Origin: Candidatus Iainarchaeum sp. | GTDB taxonomy: Archaea; Iainarchaeota; Iainarchaeia; Iainarchaeales; JAFCCW01 | DNA: 52,189 bases | Direction: 5' to 3' | Assembly: GCA_017609985.1 (NCBI GenBank) | Contig: JAFCCW010000003.1 | Span: 1 to 52,189 of the forward strand | Part shown: one piece after another, positions 5,501-41,535 of the stretch | How the letters are laid out: the number at the start of each line of letters is the position of its first letter | Position numbering within the stretch: position 1 is the first letter of the stretch | Translations under genes and position numbers: made by a program | Notes under the pieces: model-generated | Database searches by the model: none | What the model was told of the DNA's origin: nothing | Seen by the model: the letters and a program-made list of their open reading frames with translations, nothing else

Positions 5501-6025
5501 TTATCTTCCAATTTGAGTTGCTTTGCTGACAATCACAAAAATCTCTTTTTCTTCAATCATCGCATCCATTAACTCTCTGAAAACTCTTGCTGGCTTTTCA
5601 GGAGGCGTATTTTTTTCCATTTTAATCATAAGCTCTATAAGATGTCCGATAAAATCAACCTTATATTCTCCATATTGATTTAATTTCCCAAAACGCTTTA
5701 GTTTTGTGTCAGTAGTTTCTTTAAGCTCGCAATTTTTTCTGTCATCCTTGCTCTTAAAAGCATCAACCCTCTCATACATATCTCGTAAGTAGTTCATAAA
5801 TTCCAAAGTAAGCACTCGATTATGCTCTTTTTTAATAAGTAAATCAATAACCCAATGAATGTGTTTTGGGGTTCTTAAACGCTTGCCTATCTCTTGATAT
5901 TTTATGAGAATATCATGATCTGGATTTGCCCCCCTATTACCCTCAAAAACTCCAATAACGGTGCCATCCTGCAATTTGATTTCCTTTATTGATTGATGCT
6001 CTTTGCCATCTTTATTAAATTTCAT
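5501..6025 (-). CDS. Hypothetical protein in the low-GC island
   Basis: Uninterrupted ORF (ATG at 6025 or 6049) with no overlapping competitor; no motif recognised. Confidence 0.7.
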   Translation of the reverse strand: MKFNKDGKEHQSIKEIKLQDGTVIGVFEGNRGANPDHDILIKYQEIGKRLRTPKHIHWVIDLLIKKEHNRVLTLEFMNYLRDMYERVDAFKSKDDRKNCELKETTDTKLKRFGKLNQYGEYKVDFIGHLIELMIKMEKNTPPEKPARVFRELMDAMIEEKEIFVIVSKATQIGR

Positions 6026-10204: not shown

Positions 10205-10336
10205 ATGACTAAAAGAAGGTGTTGGCAAATCCTGCAAAGGATGCAGTGCCAGCAGGCGCTTGAAGAGTGCCAGCAGGTGCTTGAAGAGTGCCAGCAGGTG
10301 CTTGAAGAGTGCCAGCAGGTGCAAATCCAGGCATAA
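10205..10336 (+). CDS. Putative 43-aa upstream ORF MTKRRCWQILQRMQCQQALEECQQVLEECQQVLEECQQVQIQA
   Basis: ATG 10205 to TAA 10336, about 25 nt after TATA-like CTTAAAAA (~10175-10182); spans the 21-bp repeat in frame. Confidence 0.4.
   Translation: MTKRRCWQILQRMQCQQALEECQQVLEECQQVLEECQQVQIQA
10245..10322 (+). repeat. 21-bp tandem repeat AGTGCCAGCAGGTGCTTGAAG, about 3.7 copies
   Basis: Directly visible; no spacers; one mismatch in the first copy. Confidence 0.95.
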
Positions 10337-26547: not shown

Positions 26548-26640
26548 TCAATAGAAGAAAAAGAAATTAAAAAACCAGGCAGCTGCCTCTGAGAAAAAAG
26601 AATTGAATAACTCTGTTTTAGGCAAACTGTTTGTTTTCAT
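26548..26640 (-). CDS. Aromatic amino-acid operon leader peptide (pheL-like), MKTNSLPKTELFNSFFSEAAAWFFNFFFFY
   Basis: 30 codons with 9 Phe, 1 Trp and 1 Tyr, concentrated just before the stop; 103 nt upstream of the tal-pheA-aro operon on the same strand. Confidence 0.85.
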   Translation of the reverse strand: MKTNSLPKTELFNSFFSEAAAWFFNFFFFY

Positions 26641-35608: not shown

Positions 35609-36685
35609 TTATTCAATCTCTTCAGAGACAGCTTTTCCGATTTCCTTTGTGCCGACTTTCTTTGTGCCCGGCTCTTCAGTGAAAATATCTCCAGTCCTGT
35701 AACCCTGTTCAAGCACTTTCACAACAGCTGACTCAATTGCATCAGCCTCTTTCTCCAGACTAAAAGAGTGTCTGAGCATCATTGCGCCTGAAAGAATCTG
35801 AGCAAGCGGGTTTGCAATTCCCTGTCCAGCAATGTCTGGAGCAGAGCCGTGAATTGGCTCATACATTCCGAATTTTTTCTCATTAATGCTTGCACTTGCA
35901 AGCATGCCAATGCTTCCGGAAATGCAGGAAGCCTCGTCACTGAGAATGTCACCAAACATGTTTCCGGTAACGATTACATCAAACTGCTTTGGGTTGGAAA
36001 CCAGCTGCATTGCAGCATTGTCAACGTAAAGATGGTTTAATTCAACTTCTGGAAAATCCTTTGCAACTTCCTCAACAGTTGAACGCCAGAGCCTGCTAAC
36101 GCCGAGAACATTTGCTTTGTCAACAGAAGTGAGTTTCTTGCCTCGCTTCATTGCAGATTCGAAAGCAAGCCTTGCGATTCTCTCAACTTCCTTTTTGGAA
36201 TACCTCATCTCGTCAGCAGAAGAATCTTTTCCCTCTTCTTTTTTTCCGAAATAAATCCCGCTTGTCAACTCTCTTACAAACAAGATATCCATGCTGTCTC
36301 CGACAATCTCCGGCTTAAGCGGAGAAGCAGAAGCAAGAGGCCCGAAAATAACTGCAGGGCGAAGATTAGCAAACAAGTCATAGCGTTTTCTAATGGGAAG
36401 AAGTGCTCCGCGCTCAGGAGTAAGCTCTGGCGGAAGACTAGCCCATTTTTCTCCGCCAACTGCTCCGAAGAAAATTGCATCGGAATTGTCGCAGACTTCT
36501 TTTGTGTCTTCAGGAAAAGGATGCTTTTTTGCATCGTAAGCAGCTCCGCCAATTAATGCTTCAGTAAACTGGAATTCACAGCCGTGCTTTTCAGAAACCC
36601 TGTTAAGAACAGCTGTTCCCTGCTCCATTATCTCAGGGCCAATGCCGTCCCCTGCAAGAACAGCTATTTTGAAGTTTTTTGCCAT
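35609..36685 (-). CDS. leuB: 3-isopropylmalate dehydrogenase
   Basis: [40 protein letters not shown]. Confidence 0.97.
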
Positions 36686-37177
36686 TTACTTTCCCTCCTT
36701 TTTAGCCCAGGCAAGCAGTCCGCCTGCGTCAATTATTCCCTGAATGAATTCAGGCAGTGGCTTTGCCTTGTAAGACTCGTTCTTTGAAATGTTTTTGATT
36801 TCCCCAGTGTCAGGATTGACTTCAACCTCGTCGCCTGATTCAATTGCTTTTGAAGCTTCCCTGGACTCGAAAAGAGGCAAGCCCATGTTGATGCTGTTTC
36901 GGAAGAAAATTCGTGCAAAGCTTGTCGCAATAACACAGGAGACACCAGCATGCTTTATTGCAATAGGAGCATGCTCTCTGCTGGAACCGCATCCAAAATT
37001 TTCCCCGCCCACAATAATGTCTCCCTTAGAAACCTTTTTGATGAATTCAGAATCAGCGTCCTCCATGCAATGAGCAGCAAGCTCAGTATAGTTAGACGTG
37101 TTCAGATATCGTGCAGGAATAATTGCATCAGTGTCAATGTTGTCTCCAAACTTGAAAGCTTTTCCTTTGTAAGTCAT
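36686..37177 (-). CDS. leuD: 3-isopropylmalate dehydratase small subunit
   Basis: [26 protein letters not shown]. Confidence 0.97.
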
Positions 37178-37197
37178 TTTAAACCTCTGATTTGAAT

Positions 37198-38463
37198 TCA
37201 TTCAACCACTTCCTCTGGATGAACAATCTTTCCCGCGATTGCGCTCGCAGCAGCAACAGCTGGATTGCTTAGGTAAACCTCGCTCTTTGGGCTCCCCATC
37301 CTGCCAACAAAGTTTCTGTTGGTTGTAGAGATTGCTTTTTCTCCTTCAGCAAGAACACCCATATGACCACCAAGGCATGGCCCGCATGTTGGAGTTGAAA
37401 AAACAGCTCCAGCTTCTACAAAAATTTGAGCAATTCCTGAATTCATGCATTCTTTGTGAATCTTCTGGGTTCCGGGAAGAATAATGCACCTGACTCCAGA
37501 GGCAACCTGCTTTCCCTTCATTATGGAAGCAGCCTCTTTCAAGTCCTCCATTCTGCCATTAGTGCAAGAACCAATAACTGACTGGTCAATTGGAACATAT
37601 CCAACTTCTGAAACAGGCTTTGTGTTCTCAGGAAGATGAGGAAACGAAACCTGGGGCTCGATTTTGGAAGCATCGTAATCGAATGACTCACAGTATTCTG
37701 CATCAGAATCGCTCTTGAAAATCTTAAATAGCTTGTCTGTTGCCTGCTTGACAAACGCCTCTGTTTTTGAGTCAGGCTCAATCAAGCCGGCTTTTCCACC
37801 AGCCTCAATCGCCATGTTTGACATTGAAAATCGTGAATCCATTGAAAGCTCACTTATTGTAGGCCCAGTGAACTCCATTGCCTTGTAAAGCGAACCGCTT
37901 ACCCCAATTTCCCCGATTGTGTAAAGAATCAAGTCTTTTCCTGAAACATGTTCTTGAAGCTTGCCTTCAAAAGAAAACTTCTGGGATTCAGGAACCTTAA
38001 ACCAGAGCTTGCCAAGAGCCATTGCAGCAGCAAGATCTGTTGAACCAACACCTGTTGCAAAAGCTCCCAAAGCACCGTAAGTACAGGTGTGAGAGTCAGC
38101 TCCAACTACAACCATGCCAGGTCTTACAAGCCCTTGTTCTGGAAGAAGCACGTGCTCTATTCCAACGCGACCAACCTCGAAATAGTTTTCAAGTTTTTGC
38201 TCTTGAGCAAACTCGCGCATAAACTTGCACTGTCCAGCAGACTTAATATCCTTGTTTGGAGTGAAATGGTCGGGAATAACAGTGACTTTTTCCCTGTCAA
38301 AAACCTCTTTGAAACCTGCTTTGCGAAATTCCTCAATTGCAATTGGAGCAGTAATATCGTTTCCAAAAGCAAAATCAACATCTGCAAGAATTATCTCACC
38401 AGGGCTAAGATTATCTTTACCAGAATGCTCTGCAAGAATCTTTTCCGAAATTGTTGCACCCAT
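37198..38463 (-). CDS. leuC: 3-isopropylmalate dehydratase large subunit
   Basis: [27 protein letters not shown]. Confidence 0.97.
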
Positions 38464-38511
38464 ACTGTTCACCAGATTTTATAAACAGGAAATCTTTTAT
38501 TACTTAATTAC

Positions 38512-40047
38512 TTATTTAGGCTTGCCTTCTTTAAATAAAGCCTTGTTATAACCATTAATTATTGCCTCGACAGACGCCATTATTACATCCTCATTGATTG
38601 CTTCAGCTAAAAACTCTTTTCCCCTGCTGTTCTTAACCTTTATTACTACATTCGCAAGAGCATCTGTCCCTCCAGTAATTGCCTTAAGATTGTATTCCTT
38701 GAGAGAAACTTTTTCAGAAATAACTGAAGCAATTGCTTTCGCGCTTGCATCAACTGGTCCGACACCTTTTGCTTTTCCAACAACCTGCTTTCCGTCAATC
38801 TTCAAAGAAACCTCTGCCTCAGGCTGAACCCTGTTTCCAGTAAAAATTTTTACTTCTTCAAGAACAATTCTCTTGTCTTCTTCCCGCATCTGGTCAGTCA
38901 CATCATTTGCTATTGCAACAATATCTTCTCTGAAAACCCGCTTTTGCTTGTCAGCAAGAGCCTTGATGCGAGACGTAATTTCTTCAACCTGATTTTCCTT
39001 CAAACCATAACCCATTTCCTTGAGAACTGATTTAACAGCATGCTTGCCAGAGTGCTTGCCTAAAACAAGCTCTGATTCCTTTCCAATCATTTTCGGATCC
39101 ATTATTTCATAAGCTTCTCGCTTGCAAAGCACGCCATGTTGATGAATTCCGGATTCGTGAGCAAAAGCATTTTCTCCAACAACAGCTTTGTTGCGCTGAA
39201 CCAAAAGACCAGTGAATGAAGAAACCATCTGGCTTACCCGATAGATTTCGCTGAGGTTGAGATTTGTTTCAGCACTATAATAGCTTGAACGAGTTTTGAG
39301 AGCCATGGCAAGCTCTTCAAGAGCAGCATTTCCTGCCCGCTCTCCGATTCCATTGACAGCACACTCCACCTGTCCAGCACCATGCCTCACTGCCTCAAGA
39401 GAATTTGATACAGCAAGTCCAAGATCGTTATGGCAATGCACGCTAATTGTTGCCTGCTCGATGTTTGGAACATTTTCAATTATTCCAGAGATTAAATTTC
39501 CAAATTCAGCTGGCTGGGCATATCCAACAGTATCAGGAATATTGACAGTTGTTGCACCAGCTTCAATTGTTTTCTCCAAAACCTCGTAAAGAAAAGCAGT
39601 TTCTGTCCGTGAAGCATCCTCTGGACTGAATTCAATATTCTTGCAAAACTGACTTGCATACTTGACACCAGCCACACCCATCTGTATTATCTCTTTCGGC
39701 GACTTCTTGAGCTTGAACTCACGATGGATTGGAGAAGTGGCTAAGACAACATGAATTCTTGGCTTTTTTGCAGGTTCTAATGCTTTTGCAAGCCTGTCAA
39801 TGTCTTTTTCAACAACTCTTGCAAGACCAGCAACCTCGCTTTTTTTTATTTCTTTGGAAATGTCCCTAACTGCCTTAAAATCGTCCTCGCTCGCAATCGG
39901 AAAACCAGCCTCAATTATGTCCACATTCATCTTTTCAAGATGCTTTGCAATGATAATCTTTTCCTGATGGGAAAGCGTGGCTCCGGGAGACTGCTCTCCG
40001 TCTCTAAGCGTTGTGTCAAAAATCTTTATTTTTCTTGGTTTTGCCAT
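38512..40047 (-). CDS. leuA: 2-isopropylmalate synthase
   Basis: DTTLRDGEQ, HCHNDLG, GERAGN, HESGIHQ, C-terminal GxGPVDA regulatory domain. Confidence 0.96.
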   Translation of the reverse strand: MAKPRKIKIFDTTLRDGEQSPGATLSHQEKIIIAKHLEKMNVDIIEAGFPIASEDDFKAVRDISKEIKKSEVAGLARVVEKDIDRLAKALEPAKKPRIHVVLATSPIHREFKLKKSPKEIIQMGVAGVKYASQFCKNIEFSPEDASRTETAFLYEVLEKTIEAGATTVNIPDTVGYAQPAEFGNLISGIIENVPNIEQATISVHCHNDLGLAVSNSLEAVRHGAGQVECAVNGIGERAGNAALEELAMALKTRSSYYSAETNLNLSEIYRVSQMVSSFTGLLVQRNKAVVGENAFAHESGIHQHGVLCKREAYEIMDPKMIGKESELVLGKHSGKHAVKSVLKEMGYGLKENQVEEITSRIKALADKQKRVFREDIVAIANDVTDQMREEDKRIVLEEVKIFTGNRVQPEAEVSLKIDGKQVVGKAKGVGPVDASAKAIASVISEKVSLKEYNLKAITGGTDALANVVIKVKNSRGKEFLAEAINEDVIMASVEAIINGYNKALFKEGKPK

Positions 40048-40145
40048 TTATCCACCCTGAATTTTTTAAACAATAATTTTAAACATTAAACTTCAATCAA
40101 AATAAACTTGATTAAACTACTATTAATAGTTTGTTTATGATTCAA

Positions 40146-40175
40146 AGCCGCTGTTCCTCTGTGCAAGGCGCGGCT
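40146..40175 (-). promoter_or_regulatory. GC-rich RNA hairpin overlapping the Leu-rich leader stop (putative attenuator element)
   Basis: mRNA AGCCGC-G-CCU-UGCACAG-AGG-AACA-GCGGCU followed by UUGAA; competes with the GCUAUUG/CGAUAGC stem enclosing the Leu codons. Confidence 0.65.
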
Positions 40176-40263
40176 ATCGAAGTAGAAGCAATAGCTTTTC
40201 AAGAACAGTCTTCGGTTTAGCAAAATCTTTTGAAACAGTTTTGTATGCATATTTTGAAGACAT
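40174..40263 (-). CDS. leu operon leader peptide (leuL-like), MSSKYAYKTVSKDFAKPKTVLEKLLLLLR
   Basis: 29 codons with five consecutive Leu codons (CTA TTG CTT CTA CTT) before R-stop; 126 nt upstream of leuA on the same strand. Confidence 0.85.
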   Translation of the reverse strand: MSSKYAYKTVSKDFAKPKTVLEKLLLLLR

Positions 40264-40310
40264 TTATAATCACATTTATTAATGGATAATTGGGTTTAAA
40301 TAGATAGTGG

Positions 40311-40616
40311 TCAGCCTCTTGCAAGAGACTCAACTGCTGCAATATACTCGCTCCTATTGGTTCCAACAGGCTTTTGGGCAAAAATTTTCACAAGCTCAGC
40401 TTCACGTCTTTTTCGTTTGATAAGGTCCAAAAGCTCTGGATTGGTTAGCTTTATTTCTTCAAGAACATTTCTAACCACGCCATATCTGTGTGCATTTTTT
40501 CGAACATCTGGGTTTGGAGCTCCGCCAATAGCTAAAATAACATTGCCAGTAATTGAATCGATTGTTCTCTTTCTTTGATAATCTCGAAACCAATTTGAAA
40601 ATCTTTTCAAAGGCAT
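40311..40616 (-). CDS. Hypothetical protein
   Basis: ATG 40616 directly after the ilvE stop (MPLKRFSNWFRDYQRKR...). Confidence 0.6.
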   Translation of the reverse strand: MPLKRFSNWFRDYQRKRTIDSITGNVILAIGGAPNPDVRKNAHRYGVVRNVLEEIKLTNPELLDLIKRKRREAELVKIFAQKPVGTNRSEYIAAVESLARG

Positions 40617-40617
40617 G

Positions 40618-41535
40618 CTATTTACCCACAAAGTCCAGCCAGCTCTCGTATTCAAATACCTTGCCATGAATTGCGTCAAAGTATTTTTCCTGAATTAGTT
40701 TGGTTATTGACCCAGGCTTGCCTTCTCCAATCTGCTTTCCATCAATCTCTCTGATTGGAGTTACTTCAGCAGCAGTGCCTGTTAAGAAAACCTCTTCTGC
40801 TTTGAAAATTTCTTCTTGCGGGATATCTCGCTCAACTACTTCTATTCCATTGTCTTTTGCTATACGAATAACGCTGTCACGGGTTATTCCTTCAAGAATG
40901 TGGTCAAGAGGAGGAGTAACAAGCGTTCCGTCAAAAACTGCGAACACGTTTTCGCCTGTTCCCTCTGAAATGTTCTTGTTGTTGTCCAACAGCAATGCTT
41001 CATCAAAACCTTCCTTGATTGCCTCTGCTTTTGCAAGAGCAGAGCTGATATAAAAGCCTGAAATTTTTGCCTGATTAAGTTCCTTCTTCATGTTGAAAAG
41101 AGAATAGGAAGAAATCTTTGTAGTGATGCCGTTCTTGATTCCTTCTTCTCCAAGATAAGGGCCCCATGGCCAGACAGCAACTGCGACATCAACCTTGCAG
41201 TCAATAGGGTTTAAGCCCATCTTGCCGTATCCAAGATAAGCAATCGGACGAATGTAGCATTCCTTAATATTGTTAAGCTTGATTAAGTCAAAACTTGCTT
41301 TTCTCAAATCCTCTTTCTGAAAAGGCAGTTCCATTCCAGCAGTGTCTGCAGACTTGAACAGCCTGTCAAGATGTTCTTTGAATCGAAAAACAGCGGGTCC
41401 TTTTTCAGTGTCATAGCACCTGATTCCCTCAAAAACGCCAGTCCCATAATGGAGAGCGTGAGTCAGCATATGAATGCTTGCCTTGCTCCAGTCAACTATT
41501 TCCCCGTTCAACCAAATTTTTTCAACCTCATCCAT
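40618..41535 (-). CDS. ilvE: Branched-chain amino acid aminotransferase
   Basis: LHYGTGVFEGIR, YIRP, AK (PLP Lys), EGTGEN, LEGITR, GTAAEVTP. Confidence 0.97.
   Translation of the reverse strand: MDEVEKIWLNGEIVDWSKASIHMLTHALHYGTGVFEGIRCYDTEKGPAVFRFKEHLDRLFKSADTAGMELPFQKEDLRKASFDLIKLNNIKECYIRPIAYLGYGKMGLNPIDCKVDVAVAVWPWGPYLGEEGIKNGITTKISSYSLFNMKKELNQAKISGFYISSALAKAEAIKEGFDEALLLDNNKNISEGTGENVFAVFDGTLVTPPLDHILEGITRDSVIRIAKDNGIEVVERDIPQEEIFKAEEVFLTGTAAEVTPIREIDGKQIGEGKPGSITKLIQEKYFDAIHGKVFEYESWLDFVGK

Follow-up and report, generated by a model that had tools for sequence, protein, structure and literature searches.

Textbooks use leader-peptide attenuation as the example of regulation by the coupling of transcription to translation, and present it as a mechanism of bacteria. 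In enterobacterial leuL, a short open reading frame (ORF) upstream of leuA carries Leu codons in tandem, the rare CUA among them. In pheL (the Phe leader), a Phe-rich leader peptide precedes pheA. In the actinobacterial LEU element, the leader ORF contains a run of Leu codons, which form the base stem of the structure together with the leuA Shine-Dalgarno (SD) box (PMC1262725, Seliverstov et al. 2005). Mycobacterial polycysteine short ORFs, which are leaderless, are reported to act as attenuators of the downstream operon (bioRxiv 10.1101/834739). Here we analyze a short ORF that ends in a run of Leu codons upstream of the leuACDB operon of Candidatus Iainarchaeum sp. (NCBI GenBank assembly GCA_017609985.1, contig JAFCCW010000003.1, positions 1 to 52,189; this whole stretch of 52,189 nucleotides (nt) is referred to below as the window). 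Judging from comparative sequence analysis, the ORF is very likely a functional cis-regulatory leader. It is probably a Leu-sensing leader peptide in an archaeon, with translational unmasking of the leuA ribosome-binding site (RBS) as the favored mode of action in the window. Full-text searches of the literature on archaeal attenuation and on archaeal transcription-translation coupling returned no description of archaeal leader-peptide attenuation.

A leucine-rich leader ORF conserved upstream of leuA

The elements of the locus are as follows.

40174..40263, minus strand: leader ORF P0001, 29 codons plus TAG (ATG at 40263, TAG at 40176-40174)
40180..40194, minus strand: five consecutive Leu codons, CTA TTG CTT CTA CTT, the presumed sensing codons, complementary to the leuA RBS
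40143..40179, minus strand: GC-rich hairpin T, overlapping the leader stop, with the core AGCCGC (40175-40170)/GCGGCU (40151-40146)
40058..40142, minus strand: AU-rich spacer with five GUUUA motifs (40067-40117)
40045..40057, minus strand: leuA RBS, with GGGTGGA at 40057-40051 and ATG at 40047-40045
35609..40047, minus strand: operon of leuA (38512-40047), leuC (37198-38472), leuD (36686-37201) and leuB (35609-36685), assigned by NCBIfam equivalogs, each over its cut-off

The leader ORF translates as MSSKYAYKTVSKDFAKPKTVLEKLLLLLR, with the C-terminal end KLLLLLR, and is separated from leuA by 126 nt. Six Leu lie within the last nine residues of the peptide, five of them consecutive. The first is encoded by CTT (40203-40201), followed by the CTA TTG CTT CTA CTT run (40194-40180), CGA and TAG, so that three types of Leu codon are used and two of the codons are CTA. 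Translation thus reproduced exactly what the earlier note had read from the letters. An overlapping 54-codon ORF (40086-40250) was dropped as a leader candidate; it has no Leu tail. By score, the LeuA encoded in the window is of the bacterial type (TIGR00973), and ilvE is located upstream of the leader. Between ilvE and the leader there is a further 118-codon ORF (40311-40667, minus strand), which overlaps the end of ilvE and may not be a gene; as a candidate regulator it was rejected, given that it belongs to no Pfam or NCBIfam family and has no homolog at the other 48 leuA loci considered below.

The earlier note, which had proposed a leader peptide ahead of leuACDB, suggested looking for Leu runs upstream of leuA in related archaea. 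LeuA matches with E values of 1e-100 or better were found in 49 of the 196 genomes of the same archaeal order, and extending the search to the phylum (49 of 215 genomes) added none outside the order, the 49 being the same. By reading, a short ORF of ~20-40 codons is present on the same strand 40-260 nt upstream of leuA at 47 of these 49 loci, and in all 47 its tail is a Leu/Val/Ile run located 0-2 codons from the stop. The two exceptions (L007 and L009) are of one family, and L121 is atypical. Nine archaeal loci fetched separately all have a leader with such a run as well; they probably overlap the 49 and were not added to the count. The leaders span nine families, with LeuA identities of 50-67%, and their tails include ..LLVLLLVLLG, ..LVLVLLA and ..LLLLLA(L), with ..LLR in the window and at L006. 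Apart from composition, the peptide sequences differ between families, but the start, frame, stop and amino-acid content are kept. The related genomes are kin, so that the leader counts do not represent independent events, and the gene starts in relatives are predicted.

A strict detector, which accepts ATG-initiated ORFs of 15-45 codons within 350 nt that carry at least seven L/I/V and at least four L in the last ten residues, was positive in 40 of the 49 leuA upstream regions. By contrast, it found nothing in the reverse complements (0/49), in the stretch from -750 to -400 (0/46) or upstream of pheA (0/30). Could such an ORF arise by chance in AT-rich intergenic DNA? The detector was also positive at 5 of 1090 genes genome-wide, and several other intergenic Leu-rich short ORFs exist in this genome. 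However, the difference between the leuA upstream regions and the three controls, together with LeuA identities too low for the loci to be assembly duplicates of one sequence, leaves a chance origin with a negligible probability. The relatives thus bear out the leader peptide proposed in the earlier note, which had named a lack of Leu runs there among the findings that would refute it, and the second, Phe-rich leader described below adds weight to it.

One further locus, L030, comes from a record titled Candidatus Woesearchaeota archaeon; its leader ends in SLLLLLR followed by CGA TAG, as in the window, with a hairpin after the stop. No match for the TATA-binding protein (TBP) was found in the L030 genome (0.6 Mb), which is not among the 215 phylum genomes searched with matches.

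The host genome (1.16 Mb, 37 contigs, 86.6% complete) is archaeal. It contains a full-length archaeal small subunit rRNA (1398 bits) and a TBP gene with two repeats; among the control genomes, the TBP family matched only the four archaeal ones. The nearest relatives of the window LeuA in named records are from metagenome-assembled genomes titled Candidatus Iainarchaeum or 'archaeon' (58-67% identity), and bacterial LeuA proteins come next, with ~42-58% identity. Two elements precede the leader ORF.

40295..40300, minus strand: TTTAAA, candidate archaeal TATA box, beginning 37 nt 5' of the leader ATG
40269..40273, minus strand: GTGAT, Shine-Dalgarno-like, 5 nt 5' of the leader ATG, matching GGAGGTGATCC

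Archaeal TATA boxes are centered ~26 nt ahead of the transcription start site. The box at -37 predicts a 5' untranslated region (UTR) of roughly 8-12 nt that would begin near GTGAT. GGAGGTGATCC is the SD consensus, the complement of the 3' end of the genome's own 16S rRNA, and GTGA(T)-like motifs recur ahead of the leader ATGs in relatives with longer 5' UTRs. A TTTAWA motif is found between -62 and -15 from the leader ATG at 37 of the 47 related loci. At 17 of the 47 it starts at -30 to -26; given the distance rule for TATA boxes, transcription is expected to start at the ATG itself and the mRNA to be leaderless. No sigma-70-like promoter was detected in a scan of the leader strand of the window. 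The leader thus lies in an archaeal genome behind a TATA-type promoter at the proper distance. In one subfamily (loci L128-L135), a TGTACA-N4-GTTACA-like inverted motif is situated just upstream of the leader TATA box, ~45-60 nt before the ATG, and its sequence suggests an additional transcription-factor site.

Codon choice gives further support. The earlier note had called for genome-wide CTA usage. Counted over 548 ORFs of at least 250 amino acids, which contain 22,206 Leu codons, CTA makes up 7.0% and is used less than any other Leu codon, but two CTA among six Leu codons is only suggestive (binomial P ~0.06). CGA, which follows the run, is a rare Arg codon (6.1%), and a tRNA-Leu(UAG) gene is present in the genome. 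Across loci, CTT is depleted in the leader runs (22%, compared to 43% in the corresponding leuA genes) and CTA is enriched (12% compared to 7%); CTA occurs among the last four sense codons of the leader at 25 of the 47 loci.

An aromatic counterpart in the same window

When the whole genome was scanned for short intergenic ORFs dominated by a single residue, a second leader of the same design came up within the window.

26548..26640, minus strand: second leader ORF, 30 codons, ending in WFFNFFFFY

This Phe-rich ORF is located 104 nt upstream of a transaldolase gene (tal, PF00923), the first in a series that includes pheA (chorismate mutase-prephenate dehydratase), two transketolase halves (tkt), aroG, aroB, aroA, aroK, aroD, aroE and aroC. 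A TTTAAA box at -28 from the ATG (26668-26663) has the leaderless geometry, and a hairpin at 26546-26513 (-17.8 kcal/mol, z -2.55) sets in directly behind the TGA stop codon, four bases from its first base. Short ORFs with tails rich in F/Y/W are found directly before pheA or before tal at 22 of 30 related pheA loci, compared to 0/30 in the reverse complements and 1/49 upstream of leuA. Thus, the residues that dominate a leader match what its operon makes: leaders rich in aromatic residues precede the aromatic operon and Leu leaders precede leuA. Such tracking is a hallmark of leader-peptide attenuation.

The same evidence bears on another possibility, namely, that the products are small hydrophobic peptides with an independent role, for example as membrane micro-proteins, that merely travel with the operon. 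Hydrophobic C-terminal runs of L/V/I or F/Y/W behind polar N-termini are what such a peptide might look like. However, the hydrophobic stretch in the window is only five residues long, too short for a membrane span, the peptide sequences share nothing between families except composition, and that composition tracks the operon product, with both the run and the hairpin abutting the stop. We regard an independent peptide function as very improbable.

No leaders were found upstream of ilvD or ilvC in this genome, and HisG was not found in the 86.6%-complete assembly. Upstream of trpE (L172, contig C8 5823-5965) an ORF of 11 codons contains only one Trp and is accompanied by a direct repeat of 18 nt (AGAAGGGATTTACTTTGG, at 5829 and 5896) behind a TTTAAATA box; instead of a leader peptide, this region may represent an operator or an RNA element. 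Elsewhere in the window (10245-10322, plus strand), a 21-nt unit, AGTGCCAGCAGGTGCTTGAAG, is repeated 3.7 times with 98% matches. It precedes, by ~65 nt, another gene resembling leuA, whose product has HMGL-like and LeuA_dimer matches and is 32% identical to LeuA. This product is possibly a citramalate synthase, and the repeat could be a regulatory array.

A hairpin at the leader stop and the possible read-out of the leader

Hairpin T, including an inner CCUU/AGG stem and a CGA/UUG extension, folds at -15.2 kcal/mol (z -2.74), a value matched by 2 of 200 dinucleotide shuffles. Thus, the AGCCGC/GCGGCU hairpin read in the earlier note is real, whereas the pairing said to compete with it, GCUAUUG (40195-40189) with CGAUAGC (40179-40173), can form but reaches only -4.7 kcal/mol and is not part of the minimum-energy fold. 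Hairpins of 8-21 pairs (-6.2 to -17.5 kcal/mol) adjoin the stop at 45 of the 47 loci, starting between -3 and +9 nt from the first base of the stop codon, and for 43 of the 47 regions the folding energy does not exceed the average of the shuffled versions. The stem sequences vary between families yet stay complementary. In the f11b subfamily (12 sequences), 93.9% of the alignment cells pair, compared to 35-74% in slid controls, and the stem covaries, 8 of 11 pairs having changed on both sides, which was reached by none of 500 shuffles.

This arrangement invites a transcriptional interpretation, the main rival of the reading that we favor. The polymerase would be halted ahead of leuA by hairpin T, acting either by itself or in combination with U-rich sequence downstream or a termination factor of archaea. 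If a ribosome were stalled at the end of the Leu run, it would cover the 5' arm of T (-3 to +6 from the stop) and the polymerase would pass. The tight geometry in all families, with the run and T both held close to the stop, fits such a mechanism. At 20 of the 47 loci a tract of at least four U (U4+) follows within 12 nt of T, against a background of 0.20 in other windows of the spacers; the tract is common in families f20 (8/10) and f11 (10/18). In the genome analyzed here, runs of at least five T cluster close behind genes, with 128 of 194 first runs lying no more than 30 nt from the gene end, consistent with termination at oligo-U. In f20, UCCUAGC in the 5' arm of T pairs with GCUAGGA, the final codons of the leader, an alternative that is reminiscent of an antiterminator and clearer than that of the window.

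However, the U4+ tract is found at only 2 of 12 loci of f23 and at none of the 7 loci of families f1, f26, f6, f28, f16 and f24. In the window, hairpin T is followed only by UUU, the 126-nt spacer contains no run of five or more U, and a terminator scan of the leader strand detected no bacterial-type terminator; a terminator of the leuL type is therefore not apparent in the window. Archaeal termination is generally independent of hairpins, which also speaks against this rival. Furthermore, under starvation the ribosome is expected to stall at the first Leu codons that it meets, which lie too far 5' for it to cover T, and a terminating ribosome covers T too, so that the logic requires extra timing assumptions. 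In a variant of the same idea, T would protect the transcript and form only when the ribosome lags, which yields the right logic but is without direct support. Taken together, these points make transcription attenuation, its variant included, rather unlikely as the explanation for the window.

The spacer between T and leuA is less informative than the earlier note had suggested. All five GUUUA motifs are present (at 40117, 40107, 40091, 40084 and 40071) and none of 5000 shuffles contained five GTTTA, but some pentamer occurs at least five times in 639 of the 5000 shuffles and in 195 of 1064 intergenic windows of the genome. The repetition is restricted to this genome, the spacers of 46 relatives having 0-1 copies each. 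The two AU hairpins described in the spacer did not hold up: they are no better than chance (spacer z -0.76, 42 of 200 shuffles). The GUUUA elements (40067-40117, minus strand) read TTTAAT, TTTATT or TTTAAA and resemble TATA boxes; by sequence, they could be an internal promoter or protein-binding sites. In some relatives, a second short ORF lies between T and leuA and was considered as a translationally coupled cistron; it occurs inconsistently and the window has none.

Families f23, f26 and f6 have a conserved motif downstream of T, CAGAAGUCGUUAGA, whose complement is the T-loop sequence CGACUUCUG.

Alignment A1, columns 36-46 and 68-78: the CAGAAGUCGUUAGA/CGACUUCUG pairing at loci L106, L111-L119, L123, L136, L141, L006 and L003

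This helix crosses T in a pseudoknot topology, and 81.8% of its cells are paired compared to 35-49% when slid. Along with the five GUUUA of the window as possible binding sites, it raises the possibility of an RNA element bound by a protein or a small ligand, with the ORF as a by-product or helper. However, the helix shows no covariation (1 pair; 317 of 500 shuffles), and its extension to the window was rejected: the motif finds no better match there than 8/14, and 7.4% of shuffles do as well as the b:d duplex (-7.3 kcal/mol). Rfam, Leu_leader included, gave no match at the gathering score across the whole window and no relevant match to E 10 in 39950-40400. The ORFs keep their start, frame, stop and amino-acid content while nucleotides and codons vary, and the switch of residues to F/Y/W before the aromatic operon is left unexplained by an element made of RNA only. 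An RNA element of this kind is therefore improbable.

The reading that we favor for the window is translational unmasking of the leuA RBS. We infer that the archaeal TATA promoter would direct transcription to begin a few bases 5' of the leader ATG and that a ribosome would translate the 29 codons. With Leu plentiful, the ribosome would reach TAG and depart, and the RNA would adopt a closed form in which the Leu codons (40193-40181) are paired with the leuA SD box and AUG (40056-40045), enclosing hairpin T and the AU-rich spacer as a domain. With Leu-tRNA scarce, the ribosome would dwell on the five terminal Leu codons and prevent this pairing; the leader RNA would refold, the leuA start site would open, and leuACDB expression would rise.

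Such a closed form is what the minimum-energy fold of the window predicts: it pairs 40193-40190 with 40045-40048 and 40186-40181 with 40051-40056, closing a domain that contains T. The duplex between the Leu run and the RBS (-15.0 kcal/mol, z -2.3) was equalled by 16 of 1000 random genomic 30-mers and by 2 of 46 foreign RBSs. Partition-function folding gave an unpaired probability of the leuA start site of 0.29 in the free RNA. A ribosome footprint placed over the Leu run raised this value to 0.51, compared to 0.30 when the ribosome was at the stop and 0.32 when a control mask covered the N-terminal part. In these models, unmasking gives the correct regulatory logic without timing assumptions, and the pairing of the Leu codons with the leuA SD box favors control of translation, rather than of transcription, in the window.

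Several observations weigh against this interpretation. The pairing between Leu run and RBS is not a feature of the family: over the 47 loci the mean z is -0.25 (-0.31 with refined starts), and z falls below -1.64 at only 5 of them (8 with refined starts). Masking the Leu run across the 47 leaders raised the accessibility of the start site at 14 loci and lowered it at 8, the same as the N-terminal control mask, and a general unmasking mechanism was therefore rejected and the model is kept for the window only. Purine-rich SD boxes pair with pyrimidine-rich Leu codons partly through composition alone, and the pairing spans ~135 nt, so that local hairpins may win during transcription. The U4+ tracts at 20 of the 47 loci point to transcription termination in those relatives, and an internal promoter in the spacer, if the GUUUA elements are one, would also count against unmasking. 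Finally, the authors of the LEU element study report that mutations of the Leu codons left regulation unchanged, and they preferred a protein-binding model, which also lends some support to the RNA-element alternative (PMC1262725). The folding of AU-rich RNAs of 250 nt is uncertain in general. A weak lead comes from the 5' half of T, which contains the best partner of the RBS at 12 of the 47 loci versus 5.6 expected. Different families may use different read-outs.

Beyond the window, we lean towards the view that ribosome-mediated attenuation by leader peptides is in regular use in this DPANN order and governs at least the leucine and aromatic operons. As proposed here, its archaeal architecture would combine leaderless or nearly leaderless mRNAs transcribed from TATA promoters, a C-terminal sensing run and a hairpin overlapping the stop, and it would operate without a bacterial-type intrinsic terminator, through RBS unmasking, archaeal termination or both. 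If this is true, the Leu/Val/Ile leaders in 47 genomes and the aromatic leaders show archaea sensing tRNA charging via translating ribosomes. They would then provide a natural test bed for the interplay of coupling, termination and translation initiation in archaea, help to explain how biosynthetic operons are regulated in genome-reduced DPANN cells with a bacterial-type LeuA, and supply compact amino-acid-responsive parts for archaeal genetics.

Comparison with known leader systems

Short ORFs with Leu runs also precede leuA in bacteria: under a loose criterion, they are present at 20 of 64 bacterial leuA loci, for example in planctomycete and proteobacterial records. Tails such as ..SLLLLLP were seen among loci L040, L043, L067, L090, L034, L037 and L041. 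Judging from the sequences, the archaeal leaders could have come with the bacterial-type operon or could have arisen independently.

In its presumed function, the leader is similar to the leader-peptide attenuators of bacteria. As in leuL (Rfam Leu_leader, RF00512), a short ORF in which cognate codons are clustered lies upstream of leuA on its strand, and here it is conserved in relatives; both systems also have Leu codons in tandem, CUA included, and a GC hairpin between the leader and leuA. By analogy, the presumed signal would also be the same, namely, ribosome stalling at low levels of charged tRNA-Leu. Unlike in leuL, the host is an archaeon, the promoter is of the TATA type, the Leu run is C-terminal and the hairpin overlaps the stop; the candidate antiterminator of the window overlaps T but is weak, and the intrinsic terminator with its U-tract, missing there, is present in 20 of the 47 relatives. 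The second leader resembles that of pheL in being Phe-rich and located upstream of pheA. It differs in that it heads a tal-pheA-tkt-aro operon, that relatives mix F, Y and W, and that it lies behind an archaeal promoter with leaderless geometry. The mycobacterial polycysteine ORFs are likewise reported to be leaderless and rich in the cognate amino acid, but are bacterial and specific for cysteine.

With the actinobacterial LEU element, the window has in common a Leu-run leader ORF as well as a base stem between the Leu codons and the leuA SD box that closes a compact structured domain, with no obvious terminator in either. Crossing helices in a pseudoknot topology, a trait of the LEU element, are matched among the archaeal relatives by families f23, f26 and f6. 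The window differs in having neither the second helix of those families nor its motif, and the base stem is not general in the archaeal family (5 of 47 loci, or 8 with refined starts). By analogy, the architecture of the archaeal leader appears closest to the actinobacterial LEU element.

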